From Eledone cirrhosa (taxonomy: Eukaryota), in NCBI GenBank assembly GCA_964016885.1, contig OZ024740.1:106826001-106890000 (forward strand): a DNA stretch of 64,000 nucleotides. The letters are read 5' to 3'. Shown piece after piece: positions 2,822 to 55,529 of this stretch. Under the pieces are notes generated by a model. That model made no database searches and had not been told where the DNA came from. It saw nothing but the letters and a program-made list of their open reading frames with translations. The position numbers and the translations under genes were made by a program. Within the stretch, counting starts at the first letter, position 1. Each line of letters starts with the position of its first letter.

Positions 2822-3172
2822 ATTGAAGATGTTTGGCCTATTGTGGCCCCTTGGGACAACATCAATAACCTCATATCCATGAAAGATGCGACCCCTCCTC
2901 ATTTTACACGCACTCTCCGTGAGTGGCTTGCTGTCCAATTTCCAGCATATTGGTGAGGTCATCGAGATCCACATGAATCTCCAGCAAGAAGCCCTAATTT
3001 AACGCCATGCAATTTTTTCCAGTGGGGGTGGGTGATGGAAGAAGTTTATAGCTCAAAACCAAAATCTCTGACTCAATTGAAGGAACGCATTAGTTATTTA
3101 CTGACCAATATACTGCCGGAGTTCCTAATGAAGTCAGTCGAGAATATAACCAGACGATTACAAACACTTTAA
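2822..3172 (+). pseudogene. Tc1/mariner rosa-type (DD41D) transposase fragment
   Basis: Manual translation MKDATPPHF..REWL..QFP.YW*G.RDP.E.PARSPNLTPCNFFQWGWV.EEVY..KPK.L..LKERI; 41 residues between the second and third catalytic positions; one in-frame stop. Confidence 0.75.
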
Positions 3173-3179
3173 ATAGAGA

Positions 3180-3800
3180 GTTTCTTTCCAAGAAGTCTGT
3201 GTGAACGATGTCCCTCACATCGAAGAACACGATCAACGTAAGTTTGAAATTGGACTCTGACTGCCTTGCTTTCTTCAGCCTCAGCGACTCCGGATTTATC
3301 CACTGAAGGCTCCGGCGCTTGGTCGCCGAGTCATTTTTGAAGACCCATGACTCCGCACTGGTGATGACTCCCTCCAGTAAGTCTTGACCCACCTGAATGA
3401 GCTGCTCCTTCTGGTCATATTTGAGCAGGTTCGCCACTATCTTTGCGCAAATATTCCGCTTGCCCAAATCTTTGGTGATAATCTCCCAAACGCTGTTGCG
3501 GTTCATTCCCACCTCACTTGCGATCGGTCGAACAGATAGCCGACGATCTACACACACCACATGCCTCATGCACTTAACGTTCTCCTCGGTCATACTCGTT
3601 GACGGTATCTCGCTCCTGGGGTCATTTTCCACGTCTTCGCATCCTTGTTTGAACCGTTTGTGCCACTCGAAAACCTGTGAGCGCGACATCGTCTCATTTC
3701 TGTACATTTGATGTAGTATTCCAAGTGCTTCTGACGGAGTTTTCCCCATTTGGACCAGATACTTCAGGTTGGTACGTTGATCGGTGCCATCAACTACCTA
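3180..3800 (-). pseudogene. Mariner transposase N-terminal half (HTH plus first catalytic region), 3'-truncated
   Basis: QRTNLKYLVQMGKTPSEA...MSRSQVFEWHKRFK.G.EDVENDPRS; ITSAESWVF..D.ATKRRS.QW (degenerate ITGDESW). Confidence 0.88.
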
Positions 3801-3922: not shown

Positions 3923-4059
3923 GTTATATAGTAAGGTGCATTATTGGTTGTGTAAAATGGTCCAATAACTTTATATTAGCAATATTAAGTTCTCCACGCT
4001 TTTGTATATCTCCAATTCCATTCAAGGGAACAGCTAGATGATGTAAAACGGAGTATAAG

Positions 4060-4550
<491 letters not shown>

Positions 4551-13704: not shown

Positions 13705-16318
13705 GTTCTTCTGGTTTTATAATTTCACAAAGTTTTACCAATATAGAGAGAGTCGGTTTCTAACATAGACACAAAACTCTCTCATTGGAATTTACACAAC
13801 ATCAACTAGGTAGATATGTATGTATGTCTGCATGCATGCATGTGTAGATATGGATGTTATTGTATGTGTGGATGTGTATGTTTTGAGTTGTATGTGTGCA
13901 TGTGTATATGCTTTGTATCTGTACATGTGTATATGCAGTTATTAGATGCAAAATTTTTGGAATGTTTTACATATTTTTACTGTTCCATTAATGGATTGTA
14001 CTTGTAATTTCCTAACTAGTTGTGTTCTTTCTGTTCCTGTGAAGCCTAGCTTCTCAAGATTTGTATTGAGGCAGTTACTAACATATCCCAGTGCCCCACT
14101 AATCACAGGCATAAATCTGAAGGTGTAATCAGGGTGGAGTATCTGCAGATTTCTCATTAGTTCTGCATAAATATTCTCCTTTTCACTAAACTTTGATATT
14201 ATATTAGCATCTGCTGGGCAGCTAATTTCCACTACTGTGCATGTTTTCTTCTCCCTGTCCCATATCATAATATCTGGTCTGTTATGCCTGCATTCTATTG
14301 GGGTTTTTATTTGAACATTCCACCAGTACTCTTTCATATTATGTACATGGATGTCTTCCACATTGTTGTAGCTTTTAATGTGTTTATTATCGGGGCTATC
14401 TTTTTTACGAACTGCATTGTACAGTGTTTTGGCCACTACATCATGCCTCATAGGTAGATAGTACCGTGATGACATCTTTGGGCAGCTGCTGATGACATGG
14501 GTGATATCCTCGATGTTAGTTCTGCAGAGTCTGCACTTGTTATCACATCTAGGTGTTTTGCCTGCATCCCTATCTCTTTTGTGAATCAGGTATTTCGTGC
14601 TAATCTCCTGTTCTTGGATTGCAAAAGCGTATTCTTTAAAGTGGGAGGCAATATAGCGGTTGTTGGCCCAAGATAGACTATTTTCCTTATCTATATTACT
14701 CTCACTCTGGAGCTTCCTGGCAACATATCCATGCATTATTTTTTGCTGATAGGCATGCAGTTTTTCATCCATGGATTCACTGCGATACTGCTGAGCGACA
14801 TCCCTGGGTGTGAGTTTTTGATTATCACACAGGGAATATTTTTCAAGGAGTTCCTTCCCAACTCTCATGATCTTATCTGTTTCATGCAGATAGACTTGCT
14901 CGAGAAGTGGGCTCCTACGCTTCGAGGTTCGTAGATGTCGGAGAGATATGATGCGACATTCAAATGTTGTCTGGACTGATGTTAGGTCTCTGCCTCCCCG
15001 CTTACGTTTCAAGAAAAGGCGGTCTATGTCACTGTTGATGTGGAAGTTTCTGGTGTTGTTCAGTATTTTTCGAGTTCCAACATCAACTGCTCGGATTTCG
15101 TCTATCGTCCAATTGAGTATTCCAAACGTTGGTGCTAGGACAGGCTCAGCAAACACATTGTGAGCCACTGTTTTGTTTTGCGCAGAGAGTTCCGATGACT
15201 AGATCTTTCTTAATCGGGTGTAGTATTCCCTGGTTACGCGTTCTTTATTACAGATACCATTATAGGATATATTCTCATCTATCCCCAGGTATCTGTAGCA
15301 GTCCTCATCAGATATCGGTGAAAGAGTTAGACCATTGATGACAATGTTGCTAGATTGGGTTGTTGTTTTTCCTCGCTTTACAGTCATGTATGAGCATTTA
15401 TCTTGGCCAAACTCCATTCCTATATCCTTTGAGAACGTTGTAACCAGGTCAAGATTTTTCTTCATCCCATCCATGTTCTTGGCATAGAGTTTCAGATCGT
15501 CCACAAAGAAGTTATGGGTTAGGTTCGTATTTCTGTCCTCCTGTGAGCCAATGATGTATCCCTCACATTTCTTGAGCAGAAAGGACAAGGGGTTTAATGA
15601 CAAGATGAACAATATCACAGAGAGACTGTCCCCCTGAAATATACCCCTGCAATATTTTATTTTATCAGTGAAAATAGAGTCCTCCCTCTCTGTCTTTAAC
15701 CTTAGGATAGTAGCCCAAGAAGAAGACAGCCTCTCTATCTCTATGGCTCTGACAATAATGTCTGGGACTTTAGCAAGTTGGAGGGCCTCTATCATCCAAG
15801 AGTGGAGAACAGAAGCGAAAGCTTTCTTGTAGTCCAGCCAGACTGTAGTCATATTCCTCCTAAGTTGTCGCACCTCCGACATCGCAGTTTTGTTGATTAG
15901 GAGTTGTTCAGCACATCCCCAAACCCTTTTCTTTCCAGCTGCTTGTTCATATGTGATGATGTTATTATTTTCACAGTGATCTTGGAGAAATAGGTTGAGG
16001 CAGGCTGTATACATCTTATACATCAGGTTCTGGCATGCAATGGGTCGGTAGTTTTTTGCCAAGTGGGTGTCTTTGTTCTTGGGGACCAGTAACGTTTGTG
16101 CTAATGTCAACCATTCTGGTATAAGTGTATCTCCCTTAAGAACTTGTTGGTAGAGGTCAGTATGATACCTCCGATAGAATATTAGTTTTTTGTACCAGTA
16201 GCCGACAATCATGTCTCTTCCTGGTGTTTTCTTATCTTGGAGTTTTCCCATCACAGTGTCAAGGGTACCCTCACTATTTCGTATGTTTTTGTTGTAGTGT
16301 AGGAGCAATAGTTCTTTC
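13705..16318 (-). mobile_element. R4/Dong-clade RLE retrotransposon, 5'-truncated, copy A1
   Basis: NYRPIAC, WLDYKKAF, GIFQGDSLS, FFVDDLKLY, YRYLG, CRLC...EDITHVISSC, RH(D), RPDI...VVEISCP, KENIY; (TATG)n on both sides. Confidence 0.92.
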
Positions 16319-19560: not shown

Positions 19561-22500
19561 TTATGTTATCTCTTTCTCTTAATTTCGAGTATATTTTTGA
19601 CCGGCCACCTTCCTGGTACCAAAGTTGTAAAAGAAAAGAAATTGTCATCCCTTGAATCGCAAGAATGTTTTGCAAATTTTGAAGGTGCCAGCTATCGCAG
19701 CCATTTGTAGACTATGAATTAGGGAGCTGCGCTCTTTGTCCGCAAATCCAAGTTTAGTTATACATTGGTCCAAGCGGGTTGGTATATAACCCGTAGCTCC
19801 AATAATGATGTGTATGAAGCTAAAGGTGTATCTTCGATACTGGATTTGTAAACTCCTCATCAATGGTCCGTAGATGTCCTCCTTCTCCTGTATTTTTCTG
19901 ACAACGTTTATATAAAGTGGGCAGCTGATCTCCACAACAGAACACGTTTTCAATGTGTGGTCCCAAACAACAATATTAGGACGGTTGTGCTTTAATTTGA
20001 TGGCAGTTTTTATTTTCAGGTTCCACCAGTATTCCTTAGTGCCATCTGTCTCAATATATTCTTCCTCGTTTGTTTTTAATTTTGTTTTCCGAAGTGCTTT
20101 CCAGATGGTCCTAGCTATCCCATCGTGTCTGATGGGGAGGTAGTAGCGAGATGATATTCTTTCGCAGCTGGCAACAATGTGGCGTACATCTTCGATCTTT
20201 GTTTTACATAGCCTGCATTTATTGTCAGCTGATGGCTCTCCTCTTTTGTGCAGCAGATATTTGGTAGGGAGTTCTTGTTCCTGTATTGCATAGAGATATC
20301 CCTCAAGATGTGATGTCATAAACTTGTCGGAACTCCATGCCAGGCTTTTTGAGTGATTTATCCCCTCTATGGTCTGTGTTTTACGTCTCAAGTATCCGTG
20401 AACAACTTTTTCTGTAAATTGGTCAATTTTTTCATCTTGTTTGAACATTGACTAGGATCTTCCGATTTCTCTGGGTGAGAGATTTATATCGGGCTTTATT
20501 CCATATCTCTCCTCCAGATCAGTGGCTATCCTAATGATATTTTTTTCTTCATGCTCATAAACCTGGGCAAGATGGTTGCCAACCTTTTTCCTCTGTTGAA
20601 GATGTTGCTTCAGTGTTACTATCCGGGTCTCATATGATGTTAATATGGATTTTAGACCCCGGCCACCTTCCTTGCGTGAGAAGTATAGCCTATCCACATC
20701 ACCATTGATGTTGAAGTTCCCAGTAACACTGAGAAGTTTGCGAGTTCTAACATCCATCTCACTTAGTTCTTGCAATGACCAGTTCAGCAGGCCAAATGTT
20801 GGCGTTAGAATTGGCACAGCATAAGTATTGTGGGCAATGTACTTGTTGTACGCTGACAGTTCTGATGACCATATTTTCTTTACTCTTGAGGTATCCAGTT
20901 CTGGTTCTCTCCTTATTTATGGGTCCATCATATCTGACATTCTCATCCTGTCCAAGATATCTGTAGTTGTCACCTGACTGTAAAGGTTGTATTGTCAGGC
21001 CGTTCATCTCTAGATTTCTAGAGAAGGGCACAACTCTTCCACGTTTTACTGCCAAATATGCACACTTGGACTCACCAAATTTCATTTTGATGTCTGTTGA
21101 AAATTGTGTAATGAGGTACAATTGTTTCTTGATGTCATTGATATTTGGCCCATACAACTTCAGGTCATCAACAAAGAAAAGATGGGAGATACTTCTGGAC
21201 CCACTTCTTTGTCCACCTTGTTTCCTGAGTAGGTAAGATAGTGGATTTAGTGAGAGAACGAAGAGTAGTACTGACAAGCTATCACCCTGAAAGATGCCCT
21301 TCTGGTAATGTATCTTATCAGTCTTAACTTGCTCCTTCTCACCTCTAAGGATCAAATTGGTGTACCAGTTCTTGGTCAGACGTTCAACAGCAGCTACCAG
21401 TGGTTGTGGGACTTTCGCTAACTCTAAAGCCTTAACAATCCACCCATGAGGTACACTATCAAATGCTTTTTGATAGTCCAGCCACACCACAGTCATGTTT
21501 CTGCGATTCTTTGTTGTTTTTTCTTGAATCCTTTTATTAGTTAGTAGGTGATCTATGCAACCCCACACCTCCCTCTTTCCACCAGCTTGCTCAGGTGTTA
21601 TAATGTTGTTGGTAGCACAGTGATCCTGTAAGAACAGGTTAAGGCACCCAGTATATAATTTATACATGATGTTTTGGCAGGCTATTGGGCGGTAATTTTT
21701 AGCAAGGGTGGTTTGGATATTTGGGGGAATGAGGAGAGTAGTGGCAGTTGATAACCATCTGGGCAGTTCTTGTGTGTCTTTAATGGTTTCTATAAATAGC
21801 CGTATGAGATCTTGCCGATAGAAAGTGAAATTCTTCAACCAGTATCCTGTTATGAGGTCTGGGCCTGGCGATTTCCTATTCGACATTTTCTGTAGAGCTG
21901 TTTCCAGTATTGACCCATCTATGTCATATTGTTTTGTCTGGACATGTTGGCAGTAGTCCTGTTCCAGTTCTTTTAGCCATTTAGTTTGTCTGTTGAATCC
22001 GTCATCCGTTTCCCATTCAGATCCCCAGTAGCTCTCAAACTGCTCTTTTGAAGGGGTGTCATTTACAGAGATTGAGCTTTTGCCACCGAAGCTGCGATAA
22101 ACTGATTTAGGATCTCTGGCAAACAATCTATTTAGCACTTGTCGTTTATGACTTATATTTTAGTCTTTCTGTTGTAGCTGTGAGTTGTTGTTTCAACTGG
22201 TGTAATTTGGAGTTTAAAGTTTTAAATTTTGTATCTCCAAATCGTCTCTCTAATTTTTGTTTTACGTCTTCCTGGTGTCGTGTGAAGTTGCTCTCTATAT
22301 TGCATTTCATAATGACTGCGATTTGTGAGATACTTCGTCTCAGGGACAAAATTTTGCTTTTTAAATTTCGCATCCACGTTGGTTCAGGCTTTTTGTTCGT
22401 ATCTTGATTGCGTGGCTTTAGATGTGTTTTATATGATAGCAATGTGACAGCTGAAACATATAACAAAATGTTAAGCATTTCAAATGTCGTTTCTACACCT

Positions 22501-23795
22501 TTAGATCGTATAGCCTTCAGATAATTGTCAGCTATTTCGTTCACCGCTTCCAATTCCAATTTAGTGGGTTCTTTACTGATTCTGGTGTGGTATGGTCTGT
22601 CACTCACATTAAGGCTGTGTATCTCTTGAAACATATCGTTCCATATCACTTGGAGGGTGCCCACAAGTTTTTGGTGCTCTGTTTGTTCAGTAGAGTCATG
22701 AATTTCAGCCTCGTTGTTGATGTGGTGACAAATACTACTAGAGTTAGCTGACCATTCTCGCTGTTCTTCAGTGGAAGTGGGATGGATTTCAGCAAAATTG
22801 TTGGTGAGCTGTTCACTGTTAGATTTAGCTGGCCATTCTCTTTGTCTGTCAGTGGAGGTGGGGTGGTTGTCTACAAGGGATGTATTTGTAGTATCACTCA
22901 ATTCCGTTAGATGTATCAATTTACATCTAATGATACGTTTTGCCTATTCATTTAAATGCTTTGGAGAAAAATCTAATTCTGGGTGTTTGGAGTTCTATAA
23001 AGTTTTTAGCCTTTGCATAAAACCGAACTTTTGGGGTTCAGATTGTTTGTATGCTTCATATAATTCTTTGTTAAGCTCGTAGCTCCACTATATACAACGG
23101 TTGTAGTTGCGATTTGCCATGATGAGTTTGTCTATTCACTAATATTTTGTATTTATTTTTCAAAATAGTCGATGATCTTCTTTAAAAGTTTCGACAAAGT
23201 TCTGTCAGAATCAAATTTAAAGTTATTCACAGCTTGGGTAATATTTCTTTTCAGTTAGTTTTTAATTCTACAACTGTGTTTAAACGTTGTTTTTGAATCG
23301 TTTGAATCGAGAACAAAAGAAAAACCGTTACTTAGTATATTTCTTTATGAATGTAATATAATATAACAACGCTGTATTTATGTTAAAGTTTATGTATCTT
23401 TCATATAAATAGGTATAAATAAATAAAGAAATCATTCATATAAATAGGTGTTCTACAACATATTCACAACATATTCACAGTTAAAACACTTGTTTTTGTT
23501 TCTGAATTGAAAACGTTACATGTATATTTCTTTACAAATGTAATATAACAACGTTGCATTTATATGTTAAAGTGTATGTATCGTTCATATATCATAAGTG
23601 TATGTATCGTTCATATAAATAGGTGTTTTACAACACACTTACAGTTTAAACACTTATATAGAATTATTGTATGTAATCTTACCGCGTAATGTAGCTCAAC
23701 TTTTTCCAATATATGGTATGTTGTCTTCATGTAAGCCGTAATTACACACGTCCGATTATCTGACACTGATCACAACGGTCGCCATTGTCAGGGCA
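19561..23795 (-). mobile_element. Near full-length R4/Dong-clade retrotransposon, family B, decayed
   Basis: ATG at 23120 with Myb-like N-terminus (W..ELNKELY.AY...GFM.RLK...HPE), RT (GIFQGDSLS, FFVDDLKLY), CCHC and RLE to 19645; stops and frameshifts; ~670-bp 5' UTR. Confidence 0.92.
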
Positions 23796-23802
23796 TATGT
23801 AT

Positions 23803-24968
23803 GTTCTGGTTTTATAATTTCACAAAGTTTTACCAATAGAGAGAGTCGGTTTCTAACATAGACACAAGACTCTCTCATTGGAATTTACACAACATCAACT
23901 AGGTAGATATGTATGTATGTCTGCATGCATGCATGTGTAGATATGGATGTTATTGTATGTGTGGATGTGTATGTTTTGAGTTGTATGTGTGCATGTGTAT
24001 ATGCTTTGTATCTGTACATGTGTATATGCAGTTATTAGATGCAAAATTTTTGGAATGTTTTACATATTTTTACTGTTCCATTAATGGATTGTACTTGTAA
24101 TTTCCTAACTAGTTGTGTTCTTTCTGTTCCTGTGAAGCCTAGCTTCTCAAGATTTGTATTGAGGCAGTTACTAACATATCCCAGTGCCCCAATAATCACA
24201 GGCATAAATCTGAAGGTGTAATCAGGGTGGAGTATCTGCAGATTTCTCATCAGTTCTGCATAAATATTCTCCTTTTCACTAATCTTTGATATTATATTGG
24301 CATCTGCTGGGCAGCTAATTTCCACTACTGTGAATGCTTTCTTCTCCCTGTCCCATATCATAATATCTGGTCTGTTGTTATGCCTGCATTTTATTGGGGT
24401 TTTTACTGGAACATTCCATCAGTACTCTTTCATATTATGTACATGGATGTCTTCCACATTGTTGTAGCTTTTAATGTGTTTATTATCGGGGCTATCTTTT
24501 TTACGAACTGCATTGTACAGTGTTTCGGCCACTACATCATGCCTCATAGGTAGATACTACCGCGATGACATCTTTGGGCAGCTGCTGATGACATGGGTGA
24601 TATCCTCGATGTTAGTTCTGCAGAGTCTGCACTTGTTATCACATCTAGGTGTTTTGCCTGCATCACTATCTCTTTTGTGAATCAGGTATTTCGTGCTAAT
24701 CTCCTGTTCTTGGATTGCAAAAGCGTATCCTTTAAAGTGGGAGCCAATATAGTGGTTGTTGGTCCAAGATAGACTACTTTCCTTATCTATATTACTCTCA
24801 CTCTGGAGCTTCCTGGCAACATATCCATGCATTATTTTTTGCTGATAGGCATGCAGTTTTTCACCCATGGATTCACTGCGATACTGCTGAGCGACATCCC
24901 TGGGTGTGAGTTTTTGATTATCACACAGGGAATATCTCTCGAGGAGTTCCATCCCAACTCTCATGATC
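23803..24968 (-). mobile_element. R4/Dong family A, copy A2 (3' 1.2 kb)
   Basis: Near-identical to 13705-14870; TATG repeats on both sides. Confidence 0.92.
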
Positions 24969-25042
24969 TATGTATGTATGTATGTATGTATGTATGTATG
25001 TATGTATGTATGTATGTATGTATGTATGTATGTATGTATGTA

Positions 25043-26742
25043 TGTTCTTCTGGTTTTCTAATTTCACAAAGTTTTACCAATAGAGAGAGAGTTGGTTTCT
25101 AACATAGACACAAGACTCTCTCATTGGAATTTACACAAAATCAACTAGGTAGATATGTATGTATGCATGCATGTGTAGATATAGATGTTATTGTATGTGT
25201 GGATGTGTATGTTTTGAGTTGTATGTGTGCATGTGTATATGCTTTGTATCTGTACATGTGTATATGCAGTTATTAGATGCAAAATTTTTGGAATGTTTTA
25301 CATATTTTTACTGTTCCATTAATGGATTGTACTTGTAGTTTCCTAACTAGTTGTGTTCTTTCTGTTCCTGTGAAGCCTAGCTTCTCAAGATTTGTATTGA
25401 GGCAGTTACTAACATATCCCAGTGCCCCAACAACCACAGGCATAAATCTGAAGGTGTAATCAGGGTGGAGTATCCGCAGATTTCTCATCAGTTCTGCATA
25501 AATATTCTCCTTTTCACTAATCTTTGATATTATATTGGCACCCGCTGTGCAGCCAATTTCCACTACTGTGCATGTTTTCTTCTCCCTGTCCCATATAATA
25601 TCTAGTCTGTTATGCCTGCATTCTATTGGGGTTTTTACTGGAACATTCCATCAGTACTCTTTCATATTATGTACATGGATATCTTCCACATTGTTGTAGC
25701 TTTTAATGTGTTTATTATCGGGGCTATCTTTTTTACGAACTGCATTGTACAGTGTTTTGGCCACTACATCATGCCTCATAGGTAGATAGTACCGCGATGA
25801 CATCTTTGGGCAGCTGCTGATGACATGGGTGATATCCTCGATGTTAGTTCTGCAGAGTCTGCACTTGTTATCACATCTAGGTGTTTTGCCTGCATCCCTA
25901 TCTCTTTTGTAAATCAGGTATTTCGTGCTAATCTCCTGTTCCTGGATTGCAAAAGCGTATCCCTCAAAATGGGAGCCAACACAGCGGTTGTTGGTCCAAG
26001 ATAGACCACCCTCCCTATCTACAGTACTCCCACTCTTGAGCAACATATCTATGGCAACATATCTATGCATCATTTTTTGCTGATAGGTATGCAGTTTTTC
26101 ATCCATGGATTCACTGCGATACTGCTGAGCGACACCCCTGGATGTGAGTTTTCGACTACCACACAGGGAATATCTCTCGAGGAGTTCCCTCCCAACTCTC
26201 ATGATCTTATCTGTTTCATGCAGATAGACTTGCTCGAGAAGCGGGCTCCTACGCTTCGAGGTTCGTAGATGTTGTCGGAGAGATATGATGCGACATTCAA
26301 ATGTTGTCTGGACTGATGTTAGGCCTCTGCCTCCCCGCTTACGTTTCAAGCAAAGGCGGTCCATGTCACTGCCGATGTGGAAGTTTCCAATGTTGTTCAG
26401 TATTTTTCGAGTTCCAACATCAACTGCTCGGATTTCGTCTATCGTCCAATTGAGTATTCCAAACGTTGGTGTTAGGACAGGCACAGCAAACACATTGTGA
26501 GCCACTGTTTTGTTTTGCGCAGAAAGTTCCGATGACCAGATCCTTCTTATTCGGGTATTCCCTGGTTACGCGTTCTTTATTACAGATACCATTATAGGAT
26601 ATGTTCTCATCTATCCCCAGGTATCACCCCATATTTTTCTCCAAAAGGAATCTATGTCTTTCTGGGATGGGGCCTCAGTGACACTTATTATTTTGCCCTT
26701 CATATCTCTATAGACTGATGTTTGTGTATGTATGTATGTATG
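25043..26742 (-). mobile_element. R4/Dong family A, copy A3 (internal RT deletion, A-to-G hypermutated)
   Basis: Aligns to 13705-15295, then jumps to the pre-RT segment YRDMKGKIISV..APS..DIDSFWRKIWG. Confidence 0.9.
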
Positions 26743-26789
26743 TATGTATGTATGTATGTATGTATGTATGTATGTATGTATGTATGTGT

Positions 26790-27186
26790 GCGGGTACATG
26801 GAAATACTCGGTTTGGTGCCCGAGCGTGCGGTTAGTCCACCGTTAAAACATCATTCTAGGAGAAGGAAGACTTTGGTATAAAACCTGCGACTCGAAGCAG
26901 CCTTTTATGTTGACCTGTTCTTATTTTTGGACACATTGTGCAGAAAGTGTGATCGGTTCAGTGCAAGGCCTTTCTTCACTTAAAGAAGCTTTAAGCACAA
27001 GAATCGCTTAATCTAAACGACTTTCACGTGTGTTGCAAGATCATGGCCTTTTCTTTTTTCTTTCGCTGCAACATATGCAGAAAGGAATCTAAGCCCTTGA
27101 CAGGACTAACAGTCCATGTTTGTTCCGCCTATGCATGAGAAAAATGTCAAGAGATGGCAGTTCTCGAAACAGATATGCAACCAATA
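26790..27186 (+). mobile_element. Diverged non-autonomous RTE-derived element
   Basis: ttctaggagaaggaagact and gtgcaaggcctttcttcacttaaagaagctt blocks; 3' end gcaaccaa(TATG)n. Confidence 0.55.
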
Positions 27187-27197
27187 TGTATGTATGG

Positions 27198-27357
27198 CTT
27201 GGGTATGACACTAAACTGTATATGGTGATGAGGTCCAGTTTGAGAGATCTGGGGTTCTGGGGAGTATGGAGTTACCCCTTAGTCACTATTACTCCCAGGT
27301 CCGCTCTGACCCGGATTGTAGTAACTGTCAAGGTCCCATATATGGATTAAATAATCT
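27198..27357 (+). repeat. Interspersed SINE-like repeat fragment
   Basis: gtatgacactaaactg...attactcccaggtcc.ctctgacccgga...gtcccat.tatgg; recalled as an abundant octopus repeat, not verified. Confidence 0.4.
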
Positions 27358-27359
27358 TA

Positions 27360-28762
27360 GTGGCAAGACCTCAACATGCCAAGACCCTACATCTATCAAC
27401 ATGTTTTGTAGCTTCTAACAGCCACGCCCCAGCTTGGGTAACTCCCCTGTCACCGAGGAAGATTTTTGAGCCAGATGTTAGGAATACAATCGATGTAAAA
27501 CCTACGACCTGGGGACCTCCGTCACCGTTACAGCTTGCTAGGCCATGACAGATGAACCCAGGGTGTAACGGATAAAGTCAGTTAAGCGCGCACTGCAATT
27601 CCCCTAAAAACTCCACTGTGCAGTCTGGAAGGACATGTCCACGACCACCAACCACTCCAAGCGATAGGAAAGAGGTGAAATGGCAGGTAGAATATGACAC
27701 CGGAAGCCGCAGTCCCAATCCAGATTGCAGGCGGTTCAGGAATTTGACCGTCTGGTGTTTACTCGGGGACAACAACATCGTTCGGCACACCCTGAATGAT
27801 CTAACAGTCTTCTCTAGGGGCAACACTCCTTGCTCCATATGGAGAGGGGCCTAGAAAATGTGGCCTAAACAAAGCACGTCTCCTACAAGCTTGAAAAGTC
27901 TGCCAACAGGTCATTCTAAATGAATCATCTCTATGCGCCTCCCATTAAGTAATCATCATTATGCTACGTTCTTCATGGTGTACTCCGCAACTCTTCAAGC
28001 AGATCCTACTGTAAAGAAGTTTTACTCTGACGACAAGGTCATAATCTTTGACGATTTCAACGCCAAAGTAGGCCGAGATTCTGTTGCTTGGAAGGGAGAG
28101 CTTGGGAGACACGGCGTTATTAACTGAAATGACAGTGGGTGCTTACTGTTTGGGTTCTCGTCATCGCGAGCAGAAGGACAGTTTGAAAACAACCTGGTTG
28201 CATCCTCGGTCCAAATGTTGGCACCTCCTTGATTATATTCTAGTGCACCGGTGTGACCTAAAACACCGACCATCGTCACACCGACCATCGTCTAGTTCAC
28301 TGAAAACTCAAGCTCTAATTTAAACTCAAATCAAAGAAAGGTGGGGCCCTCAGAAAAAAGTTCAAGGTACGCAGTTTCCAGTCATCTGATGTGAAAGCTG
28401 GCTTCCAGGCAGCTCTTTAGTCGAGACTTGAAGATGCACACATCCCTCTCCTGAAACACTTTGGGAATATTTCAAAATTGCCATTCTGCAGACATCTGAG
28501 GAAGTCCTTCGGTTCACCTTAATGAAAAAAAAAAAAATGGTTTGACGAAAACAACAAAGAAATTCAAGAATTGCTGGCGAAGAAAAGATCCACCCACCAA
28601 GCCAACTTAGCTCAGCTATTTTGCCCAGTGAAGAAAACTTCATTCTGCCTCCTATGCAGTAACTTTCAGCACAAAATTCGAGAGATCCAGAACAAGTGAT
28701 GGACCAGCCTCGCTGGGAGGACTCCGCTGTGCGCAGACACTGGAGATATTAAGAGCTTCTAC
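27360..28762 (+). mobile_element. Decayed RTE (BovB-like) 5' half: 5' UTR and APE endonuclease
   Basis: VY.ATLQAD...KKFY, II.DDFNAKVGRD..AWKG.LGRHG, KTTWLHPRSKCWHLLDYILV, IQNK.WTSLA...CADTGD.KSFY. Confidence 0.85.
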
Positions 28763-41486: not shown

Positions 41487-44400
41487 AAGAATGAAGAGTA
41501 ACATGGTTGGCTGTACAATAAGGGGCTTTATTTCAAGTACTGACAATTGTTTCATTGATCAGATGAGTCTAGAGATCGCTAATCGCTTGAAGTTGCGTCA
41601 CTCGATCTCCAATACATTATTTACCTCTGATCAACACATCAGTGTACGTAGATATAAAAATAATTAACTCGAGGCAAGAAATATATAGAAGAATAGCGTA
41701 TAATCAAAACAATAACATCAATAATAAAATATATATGATAAATAGGTTGAGAAGTTACAGATGTAAAAAGTAAAAAGTAAAAGATAAGATAGGATACATT
41801 AAAAAGGTAAGACAATAAGAAAATGGAAAATATAACGAAATAAATAAGGATAAGTGAGAGCATGTAAGTACAGAGTATGTTTGTGGTGGTGGTGAGTAAG
41901 TATTCTTATAAGGATACATTGGTGGGTTTAGTGCTAACATGAAAAACTAAATTCGAAATATATATAAGATACGTGTAGAGAGTCTGATGTAGTGACAGAT
42001 AAAAGAAAAAAGAAAAAGCAACAAATTAGAGATAAATTGGGAGATACAAGTATGAGATTTAAGGGCTAGGGTGGATTGTGAAGGGAGGTTTGACAAATGT
42101 GTGTTGTAAATGTTTTGCTGATTGTTCTATCTTAATGGGGTTGATGCTGTTTCAGGGAAAGAAGGTGAAAGAGATGTTCAGAGATTTATGATCCAGTGAC
42201 CAGTTGGCCGTTTGACAGCTAATAGCAGTGTGATGGTGTGTATTCTATATGCTAAAATATAGGTGGTTCAATTCTGATTTTGGGATTGCTGGTTCAAATC
42301 AGGGTGGTTTGAAGTTTGTGAATCTGGTAGCTATTTTATGCCTACAGAAAATTGATCTTTCTATTTTGCAGTTAAGCAGCATCCCATCGTACCTTAAAAT
42401 ATGGAGTAGTTCTAAATTACAAAGACCGCAGTGGGACATTCCGTTGCTGTAAGCCCTTGCTACCGATAATTTTGACCCGCTAATCTTATATTCTAGGTTT
42501 TTGTTTTTAAGCTTCCAGATCTTATTGGCGAGCGTCGTAGAGTTCTCCAGTCTACGGTTCTTCATGGAGTGTCTGTGGACGTACCACCTTTTCTTGAACT
42601 CCCCAGCCGTGGAACCTATGTAGTGCCAAGTAGTGTTACCTGAATTTACAGTACACAGGTACACCATACTCGAATCCAGGCATCTATTTTGTAGTGGGCA
42701 CTTATCCGGTAGGTGGCAATTACAATTTGAGGTTTTTCTGTGTGCAGGTTCTCCGTTGCGGTTTTGTAAGTTGTTGTGGGTGGGTTGTGATTTATGCCTA
42801 TTAGTGTTTTGTAGTGATGCGCTCTGATGTGTTTGTGGTTCTGATGTTGTTATGTGTTTGCGTTTTATATCTGGTGCTCTGGTGTATGTTGGTAGGTTAA
42901 TTTCTTTAGAGATATTTTTGTGGTTGATAAAACGTATGTTGGCTGCAGTAGAGTAGGATAGCTTTATAGTTTTTCTATTAAAGATTCTATGGTATTTGTG
43001 TAGTGTAGGGAAGTGCTTGTCTATTAGTTTAAAGAATGTAGAATGTAGTTTAGTTTTTATAGAGGAGTTGAATATTGGATTGAACCATGGGTATTTTCTA
43101 TCTCTGGATCTTCTATAGTTTTGGGGGTCCTTATATTAGTGTTCGGTTCAGTTATTTTTTAGTGCTCGTTGTTTAATTCTATGCTTAGTTCTATGCTTGT
43201 TACTTCTATATGAGTGGGTAGTGTTGTTGTCGTTAGGTTTGTTGTTGCTGTCTCTATCTAGTATGTATTCCAGTTTCTCCTTATGTCCAGCCTTATGTAA
43301 AGCTATGTTATAATAGTTTGTGTGTTCGTTAAAAATTTCTAGATTTGAAGATAGGCGGGGTATTCTGAGGGATATACTATTTGCTATGGATTTAATTATG
43401 GGTCGGGGGTGGTTTAAGTTATAATTAATGTAGGCTAGATTCTCGTTATTCTTATGGAAGGGCTCTATTAATCCTGGATTTAGGTTGAGTTTTACATCTA
43501 AGAAATTTGCTTTTTTAGAGTTAAGTTCGAAGGTGATACCTAGGCCTAAATTGTTGAAGAATATTCTAATGTTTTTTCGTAATTTTTCCATGTTTTGAAT
43601 ATTTAAGTTTTTGGCTAAAAGGAGTGTGTCGTCTCTGTAAATTCCTCCCTGGGGGTTATTGAATTCCTTATGTAAGTTGTGCGCTATATATATTCCCACC
43701 AAGTCCGTTACCTGCGCTGAGTCGTTAGATCCCATTGTGATATCGAAGCTATTCTGTCTGTTTTTTTCGTTCCCAGTAGCTATTTTCGAATCTAATGATA
43801 GTCCTCCTAGCAGCTAGTATTATTTTAATTTCGTCCGAGGTAAGGTCCGAATTTTTCTGGGCAAAGGTTAGCGCTTTACCCAGGGTGACTGGGGATATGG
43901 ATGAGTAGTAGTCATTAATGTCGAACTGTACGAAGTTAGATGTTTCTCTACTGTTAGATGTTTCTCTACTGTTTATGTTGCTTCGTTAGTGTTACCCCAT
44001 AGCTTAATTACTAGTTTGTCCTTAATTTGTGTGATTACTCTATTTACTATATACTTGCTAATTCTACCTATATCCGACTTCGATGGGCATATTAATATAA
44101 TTGTGGGGTCTATTTCGAAATTATTTTTGTGATCCTTTAGGTTAAATGTGGGGTTACAAGGGGTTAGAGGCTCGGTTCTATCAGATATTTTCAGTTTTTT
44201 ACTATGCTAGTGAGTGCAGATTCTGTTGTTTTTTTTTTTTGGGGGGGGGGGGTTCACGGCGTATAAAATTATTGTATGTATTAAGGCTCATGGTGTATAC
44301 GTTTGATGTTTTGTCTGCTTTTACTATAATACCATTGGTGTTGCGTAGTTTTTTTTAGTAGTGCATTGGTGTCTTTTTGCAATTTGTTGTGATGTGTCTG

Positions 44401-53931: not shown

Positions 53932-55347
53932 TTAGCTGTATACTTTATGGAATGTTCTGTGGAATGTATGCAAGCAGAGAGAAAACAAGTCAGTGCGTCT
54001 ATTTATTATAGAATCTAAATTACATATAATGGTAAACTTTTCATTTAAACAGAGATTGCAAGTCTTGGATAGAGAACTGTTCAAGTATAGAGAAGCAGAA
54101 GAAACCTTTTTCCAAGAGATGTTATATTTAATATTTTTGTCTTTCAAGGACCATATGAGTTCTGAGAGTGCCGTGTTGGTTCTTTTAAGTTGGTATTTAA
54201 AAGACGAATGATGATTATAAAGACGAGCTTTAAAGGAGGTGGAAGTGGAGCCAAAATAGGTGAAGGAATTGGTGTCAGTTATAACTTTACATTCGTAGAT
54301 TAAGTTTTTTTCAAGACAATGGTTGTTGAGAGGACATTTATTTTTAACAGGGCAATTGCAATTGCGATTAGAGAGATTAGCAGAGTTATTAACGAGTGAC
54401 CTAGTGTTATCTATAGAAGGAATTGGATTGGAGAAGTTATTTACGATAGGAATAATAGTTTCTTGATTTAGCGAAGTTGTGTTTGACGTTGTATTTGGGT
54501 TTGCAGAAATTAGCCTAGAGTTTACAATGACGTTGGGAGTACTATTACTATTATTATGATATTCAGTGTTGGAAGGAAGAGATTTAGTATTTAGTATTTT
54601 ATTGTTGTGTTTAGAGATAATGTTGGAAATGTTGGAGGAAGTCGAATAGGAAAATTTTATAGTGTGTTTGTTAAATATTTTACTATAGATATGTGAGGGA
54701 GGGAAGCATTTATTTAAGGCACTAAAGAATAATTTAGGAATATTGTTATTAATAGAGATGGAGAGAGGAGCATTATACCAGATTATGTTTTTGTATCTAG
54801 GTCTTTTATTAAAGTTATTGGAATGATCATGATTAATTATTCTACTGTAAGATCTTCTAGAATTTGTTTCTTTACTATATTTGATTTTATCAGGATAGCC
54901 GGCTTTAGAAAGCGCGTTATTATAGTAATTGGCGTTAGCATCAAAGATGTTTTTATTACAAGATAGGTTAGATATTCTTTTTCCAATATTACTAACTATA
55001 GCATTCTTAATATTAGTGGGGTGGTTAGATTTAAAATTAACATAATTTAGGTTCTCATTGTTTTTATGGTAAGGGTAATATAGGCCAGTGTCAAGATTAA
55101 GAGATACATCCAAGAAATTAGCTAGTTTGATGCTGTTATCAAATTCAATTTTTAAGTTATGTTGGTTAAAGAGATTACGTATATTGTTCTTAATAATATT
55201 AAGGTTAACTATGTTGCAATTTAAGATAGTAAAGAGTCCATCGTCACGATAAATTCCACCGCGAAGTTGAGGAAGTTTCCGACTCAAAGAATTCAAAATA
55301 AAGATACCAATTAAATCTGTCAATTGGGATGAATCGGATGCTCCCAT
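53932..55347 (-). CDS. Penelope-like (Naiad) RT C-terminal half plus GIY-YIG endonuclease, open for 471 aa but 5'-truncated
   Basis: (FDIT)MGASDSSQLTDLIG, GGIYRDD, NFLDV.LNL, SNHP, IIWYN.P, CNC..CPL..CL..NLIY...YFGST...FK.R..NH, CNLCLNEK, CLH. Confidence 0.88.
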   Translation of the reverse strand: MGASDSSQLTDLIGIFILNSLSRKLPQLRGGIYRDDGLFTILNCNIVNLNIIKNNIRNLFNQHNLKIEFDNSIKLANFLDVSLNLDTGLYYPYHKNNENLNYVNFKSNHPTNIKNAIVSNIGKRISNLSCNKNIFDANANYYNNALSKAGYPDKIKYSKETNSRRSYSRIINHDHSNNFNKRPRYKNIIWYNAPLSISINNNIPKLFFSALNKCFPPSHIYSKIFNKHTIKFSYSTSSNISNIISKHNNKILNTKSLPSNTEYHNNSNSTPNVIVNSRLISANPNTTSNTTSLNQETIIPIVNNFSNPIPSIDNTRSLVNNSANLSNRNCNCPVKNKCPLNNHCLEKNLIYECKVITDTNSFTYFGSTSTSFKARLYNHHSSFKYQLKRTNTALSELIWSLKDKNIKYNISWKKVSSASLYLNSSLSKTCNLCLNEKFTIICNLDSIINRRTDLFSLCLHTFHRTFHKVYS

Positions 55348-55529
55348 TGTGATGTCGAAGTTGTTACTCTCATCTCCTCCTCTTTTTCATCCTTTCCAAC
55401 CTCCCCCCCCCCCTCAAAAAATCTTTTTTCCCAATATCACGCATCAATCTAAAACTACTTTTCATATATTGATTTTAAACTGCACTATTCACAAGTGTTT
55501 TTTAACCTTCATATCATGTCTTCCTATTT

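Follow-up and report, generated by a model that had tools for sequence, protein, structure and literature searches.

Can RNA editing leave a heritable mark in the DNA of a retrotransposon? The question is raised by a single repeat copy, A3, in a 64-kb stretch of the Eledone cirrhosa genome (contig OZ024740.1; this whole stretch is referred to as the window, and coordinates are window positions unless a contig is named). A reading made from the sequence alone had proposed that A3 carries clustered A-to-G changes on its sense strand, i.e. T>C on the plus strand, because a hyper-edited transcript had been retrotransposed. The window holds repeats only, within a genome of 3.0 Gb, and three of these repeats, A1, A2 and A3, are minus-strand copies of one shared non-LTR retrotransposon family with at least 2209 candidate places genome-wide. 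The features needed here are:

13706..16318, minus strand: copy A1, the alignment backbone for coordinates; 5 A>G among 36 substitutions, not hypermutated
23804..24969, minus strand: copy A2, adjoining A3 in the same orientation and serving as the local control; 2 A>G among 10 substitutions, not hypermutated
24966..25044, unstranded: (TGTA)n microsatellite at the A3 3' end, the insertion target of the family, lying between A3 and A2
25045..26720, minus strand: copy A3, a 5'-truncated, internally deleted, frameshifted non-LTR retrotransposon
25045..25272, minus strand: 3' UTR of A3, with 0 A>G once indel-adjacent columns are masked
25431..26543, minus strand: hypermutated tract of A3, with 27 sense A>G and 0 T>C
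26040..26067, plus strand: 14-nt tandem duplication private to A3, both units with the same C>T and 0 edited sites inside
26626..26720, minus strand: A3 5' piece, derived from sequence that lies upstream of the RT domain; at least 39 other copies are identical to it
26722..26787, unstranded: (TGTA)n microsatellite at the A3 5' junction

The family encodes a reverse transcriptase (Pfam RVT_1, E=1.7e-23 in A1), after which the motifs CRLC..HVISSC and RPD..VEISC can be read straight from the translation; we take these to be a CCHC knuckle and a PD-(D/E)xK-type nuclease motif. This combination of domains, as predicted from sequence, places the family among the RLE-encoding non-LTR retrotransposons. 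A run of at least three TACA units adjoins 250 of 322 family 3' ends, which marks a repeated target, and copies frequently lie head to tail with (TACA)n in between. Neither the 111 homologues nor a PDB search included a reference of a named clade (R4/Dong, HERO, NeSL, R2, CRE), and microsatellite targeting is described for HERO and Togen elements too (PMC4640811). A3 belongs to this microsatellite-targeting non-LTR family but is itself dead. Its 5' piece is joined to the rest over an internal deletion of ~1065 nt in the RT region, with a 2-nt GA microhomology at the joint. Splicing was considered as the source of this deletion and rejected, since an AG precedes the downstream side but no GT donor exists at the upstream break. 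The 14-nt duplication is likely a later repair event, given that both units share the same C>T. Elsewhere, at C2:311220764-311307035, three family copies within 90 kb carry the same two variants and are probably local segmental duplicates.

Compared with A1 and A2, 24 of the 44 private differences of A3 are plus-strand T>C, so that the dominance of this change was borne out; the stretches quoted for it (26004-26031, 26149-26160 and 26361-26375) and the protein changes DNQK to GSRK, YI to CV and NSDI to GSDM are all present in the sequence. In a comparison with 57 other copies, sense A>G accounts for 29 of the 53 substitutions of A3 and T>C for 2, where 3.7 A>G would be expected; the 57 copies have 129 A>G among 955 (Fisher p=1.3e-11). 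For the final set, HSPs shorter than 150 nt or below 82% identity were removed, four columns were masked beside each indel and end, and columns short of an 85% majority were discarded, which left 401 copies and 688,867 aligned sites. Measured against the 400 other copies of this set, A3 has 27 sense A>G among 46 substitutions (p=3.4e-13), together with 4 G>A, 1 A>C and 0 A>T. With 0 T>C beside them, the 27 A>G are fully asymmetric between strands, and the excess is one of pure transitions. The sites are also clustered: 12 gaps do not exceed 10 nt (permutation p=0.00025), and one 100-nt span takes in 10 sites (p=0.0005), the densest stretches being 25431-25475, 25541-25554, 25963-26030, 26135-26189 and 26336-26373. 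The changes of the same kind ascribed to A2 exist, at background level. Four apparent sites in A3 are not edits: at 25965 it has the family state, at 26071 the family base is G, at 25942 the variant is common to 7 of 57 copies, and the difference at 26049 is an alignment artefact of the 14-nt duplication.

These changes are derived and specific to A3. The family state is A at 27 of 27 sites, which rules out G as the ancestral base. No subfamily sharing the sites was found: among the 400 other copies, 291 share none of them, 93 share one, 15 two and a single copy five, and even these counts are inflated, since some of the searches picked copies for their shared sites. When a 39-nt motif that spans five edits is sought in the genome with 3 mismatches allowed, A3 is the sole match, and outside A3 the edited region finds its closest counterpart at 93% identity. 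The remaining 19 substitutions of A3 (1.3%) are ordinary for the family, whose median total divergence is 2.0% in the enriched set. In coding sequence, 23 of 26 edits are non-synonymous, close to the 74% expected from all possible changes (323/438), and no selection on the edits is seen. Two other mutational signatures were considered. For sense G>A of the APOBEC type, 0 of 401 copies pass correction, A3 with its 4 G>A included; a two-stranded hypermutation confined to TpA (A>G plus T>C) was rejected, as A3 has no T>C and only 8 of its 27 edits have a 5' T.

The same excess was found in two further copies that are unrelated to A3, so that 3 of 401 copies are Bonferroni-significant for sense A>G:

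C2:98680379-98682215: copy L093 (L356), 21 sense A>G and 1 T>C among 52 substitutions, with a ~680-nt internal deletion
C1:413815040-413819262: copy L085 (L357), 27 A>G and 4 T>C among 75 substitutions, in a tandem array of three

For the other 11 substitution types, 0 of 401 copies pass the same correction, the best T>C case having p=0.002. L085 was recovered by a query without any edited site, and its 3' half, fetched after the copy had been flagged, contributes 15 A>G and 1 T>C among 36 substitutions. Its 5' 1.6 kb is far less diverged than the remainder (13/1579 vs 75/2517), and L085 is possibly a mosaic. Its upstream neighbour shows a mild excess (16 A>G and 5 T>C of 86) outside the top-ranked copies. 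L093 and A3 share five A>G sites within 60 nt and no other variant (p=0.001 before allowing for selection, L093 having been retrieved by an A3-like query), which suggests a hotspot rather than descent. Substitutions other than A>G are also higher in L085 (48/2517 sites) and L093 (31/1732 sites).

The A>G polarity is a matter of these three copies, of which A3 was chosen by the sequence-only reading and L093 by an A3-like query, and seven genome searches used A>G-rich queries against one with a T>C-rich query, which biases the test of polarity; the latter search returned 1194 candidates with barely any enrichment. Low-level editing across the family was considered and discarded, as an asymmetry in the enriched set (p=0.002) is gone in the 111 copies from unbiased searches, with 4.33 vs 4.02 changes per 1000 on the two strands (p=0.45), and the hypermutated sites are not G more frequently in other copies (p=0.44). 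No further hypermutated copy was found in the family 5' part (151 segments), and a T>C run in another copy, L063, sits in its TACA flank and was set aside. Large internal deletions occur in 2 of the 3 hypermutated copies vs 40 of 307 long family copies overall, a tie between hypermutation and deletion that is only suggestive. A related second family of RT/RLE type, at 19645-22943 on the minus strand, is represented by 43 segments in the fetched loci, 0 of them hypermutated.

Does the host possess an enzyme of the required kind? A profile search of the genome contigs returned PF02137 matches on C6, C1 and C25, giving four adenosine-deaminase-domain loci, of which C6 alone was identified:

C6:13644405-13646174: adenosine-deaminase-domain locus, ADAR2
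C25:17350492-17356918: adenosine-deaminase-domain locus
C1:146445324-146462757: adenosine-deaminase-domain locus
C1:320727439-320727711: adenosine-deaminase-domain locus

The deaminase region at C6 is 95% identical to Octopus vulgaris ADAR2, and at most 72% identical to that of other named animals, which marks the host as an octopod, and the protein carries the HAE and PCGDAR motifs. Judged by these residues, the host encodes a catalytically plausible ADAR.

ADARs are described as favouring a 5' U or A, avoiding a 5' G and mostly favouring a 3' G (PMC9989829), and 5' G is given for only 7.85% (human) and 5.8% (Xenopus) of edited-trace sites in PMC2873906. The depletion of 5' G anticipated by the sequence-only reading failed to appear in A3 alone, where 5 of 27 edits have a 5' G (relative rate 0.89, p=1). 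No other result weighs as heavily against an ADAR origin. In L085 and L093 combined, 5' G is depleted (4/48, p=0.02). Pooling all three copies gives a borderline depletion (relative rate 0.55, p=0.044), which weakens to 0.63 (p=0.13) when one L093 stretch and one recurrent site, both selected by the searches, are removed to keep 66 sites. Within these 66 sites 5' A/U is enriched (48/66, p=0.001), as is 3' G (24/66, p=0.001), and the latter also holds in A3 by itself (12/27, p=0.002). The top trinucleotides at all 75 sites are AAG and TAG. The pooled preference for 5' A/U and 3' G agrees with the metazoan ADAR motif as laid out in PMC9989829.

Predicted local RNA pairing is raised around the edits when assessed by circular shift with the 3' UTR excluded (A3 p=0.002, L085 0.03, L093 0.12, pooled 0.001). 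The edited base itself shows no significant rise in pairing (p=0.11), and the signal around it may be confounded by G+C content. A search of the 2.6-kb A1 copy found no long inverted repeat, so the source of double-stranded RNA is one that we infer. The 3' UTR is spared: in A3, L085 and L093 pooled, 0 edits occur at 242 A, with a circular-shift mean of 9.2 (p=0.007), as would be expected if the 3' UTR must stay intact for priming.

Taken together, the proposal that a hyper-edited transcript was retrotransposed holds up in its strand asymmetry, its clustering, its 3' G preference, the two further copies of the same polarity and the presence of a host ADAR2, and falls short in the neighbour preference of A3 alone, where 5' G is not depleted. 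We consider it probable that A3 derives from an ADAR-hyper-edited transcript that was reverse-transcribed and fixed by germline retrotransposition. The source transcript would have been partly double-stranded, through local folding or by forming duplexes with antisense RNA from the 2000+ copies, and ADAR would have converted ~5% of its adenosines to inosine, in patches. The element protein could still bind the unedited 3' UTR and prime reverse transcription in a (TACA)n target, whereupon the RT would place C opposite I and so fix G on the sense strand. A3 would afterwards have aged as its siblings did. This chain, which runs from an RNA duplex deaminated by ADAR to target-primed reverse transcription that reads I as G and inserts the copy in the germline, is likely to the same degree. 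A wider proposition, that octopus germline ADAR hyper-edits retrotransposon RNA at recurrent, structure-guided hotspots, and that RT writes the edits into DNA whenever the 3' UTR is unedited, is more tentative, and we place it slightly short of an even call.

Several known systems bear on this reading. ADAR-linked A-to-G hyperediting has been described for the avian retroviruses RAV-1 and avian leukosis virus (Felder 1994; Hajjar and Linial 1995, cited in PMC8586724); there, as in A3, a reverse-transcribing element shows sense A>G changes in clusters, and these are attributed to the action of ADAR on its RNA. Those cases, as summarised in that article, concern exogenous viruses, whereas A3 is a non-LTR element in an invertebrate assembly that has aged among ~2000 siblings. 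The 'DNA editing' by APOBEC3 detailed in PMC2873906 leaves G>A clusters in genomic retroelements of vertebrates and resembles the present pattern in that individual retroelement copies, when compared with related sequence, show a strand-specific cluster of one mismatch type. It differs in that the change here is A>G rather than G>A, the substrate would be RNA before reverse transcription rather than cDNA, and no stops are created. In coleoids, RNA editing is widespread on repeats, and a role of such editing in transposon defence has been put forward as unexplored (both according to PMC9068888). Coleoid and metazoan hyper-editing as presented in PMC9068888 and PMC9989829 would share with A3 the enzyme family, the repeat substrate and the pooled 5' U/A and 3' G preference; these accounts deal with RNA only, whereas the changes here are in DNA, with a 5' G depletion that is weak overall and absent in A3. 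Human ADAR1 and ADAR2 restrict L1 independently of editing, and Sanger sequencing revealed no edited L1 RNA in the experiments described in PMC5224506 and PMC8677026, which counts against the ADAR reading of A3. The likeness to that system is the association of ADAR with LINE RNA; unlike it, rare catalytic editing that survives retrotransposition would be needed here. In the literature searched, which lay mostly outside subscription journals, no paper was found to describe non-LTR copies that had been edited by ADAR and then fixed in a genome.

Among the alternatives to editing, the strongest is error-prone synthesis at the DNA level, with G placed opposite template T on one strand, either in a Pol-eta-like repair patch after insertion or by misincorporation during second-strand synthesis. 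The Pol eta motif is WA, and the 5' A/U enrichment is compatible with it; A3 lacks 5' G depletion, the 3' G excess could reflect next-nucleotide dislocation, and a second-strand error would be sense-polarised as well. Pol-eta spectra differ, however, from a near-absence of A>T and A>C, such as the 0 and 1 seen beside 27 A>G. Moreover, a repair patch should strike either strand, and a T>C excess is found in 0 of 401 copies. The edits also follow predicted RNA pairing, and five sites recur in the independent copy L093. We regard such an origin as unlikely.

The G states might instead be an assembly artefact, arising from platform error or from polishing with edited RNA reads, the latter of which would mimic both strand and motif. 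Sequencing runs were compared at 90% likeness (X1, X4, X22, X23) and at 98% (X1, X2, X3, X24). The A3-specific cluster is absent from every run compared, the RAD libraries among them having little coverage, and depth is zero at 25983-26035 in X1, X2, X3 and X24; this would speak for an artefact, as contigs from X1-X3 match the right flank with 0-1 differences. A search for RNA runs returned one, a fish-gut metatranscriptome that contains 0.13 of the sequence words. However, X1 contigs also lack the window alleles at 23483, 23520, 23535, 23658 and 23761, all outside A3, and match the flank at 26798-27600. X1 therefore appears to carry another haplotype, which suggests that haplotypes differ in the A2/A3 block as a polymorphism, and contigs of this kind are unable to show absence. 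The pattern also occurs at three separate loci and not in the adjacent A2, and an artefact is accordingly improbable, somewhat more so than error-prone synthesis.

Less plausible again is RNA-templated gene conversion, by which edited cDNA would have converted patches of a resident copy. The patchiness of the edits, with an unedited 3' UTR and 5' piece, and the less diverged 5' part of L085 fit such a process, but patchiness is expected from ADAR too, insertion from RNA is the normal route of the element, and no tract boundary or donor was found, leaving conversion very unlikely. An unsampled subfamily whose master carried the G states of A3 is barely credible: although the alignment took in 401 copies of 2200+ candidates, four targeted genome searches returned no sibling, neither the motif search nor the best other match pointed to one, and differences confined to A>G are not what a subfamily would show.

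If retrotransposition of an edited transcript is the correct reading of A3, what would it mean for the family? The sequence-only reading had seen in it mutational restriction or diversification of LINEs by ADAR. Restriction is not supported: only 3 of 401 copies (at most 0.75%, in an enriched sample) are hypermutated, A>G is unable to create stop codons, and the non-synonymous share is near its expectation. The low frequency equally speaks against a major route of diversification and points to leakage. The hyper-edited insertion would be a rare leak, in under ~1% of copies, and not a family-wide process. Even so, copies in the genome that bear an ADAR signature would be evidence of germline catalytic editing of LINE-type RNA that survives retrotransposition, and RNA editing would become a rare but heritable source of DNA mutation. 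The frequency of such editing, the families affected and the sites could then all be counted using nothing but assemblies, and sparing of the 3' UTR predicts the portion of the RNA that has to stay unedited for insertion. On the wider, more tentative proposition, the genomes of coleoids would preserve germline RNA editing as a datable fossil record, and whenever these elements mobilise an edited RNA, its edits could be fixed as DNA mutations.

The remainder of the window adds a few minor observations. A 386-nt self-complementary stretch at 4054-4439, with 94% identity to its own reverse complement, is MITE-like or a foldback, and a remnant of a Mariner/Mos1-type transposase (HTH_48, Transposase_1) lies at 3090-3797 on the minus strand. 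Two RT-like ORF remnants, also on the minus strand, occupy 42299-43813 and 53932-55386; the one scanned gave no Pfam hit, and both resemble Penelope elements.
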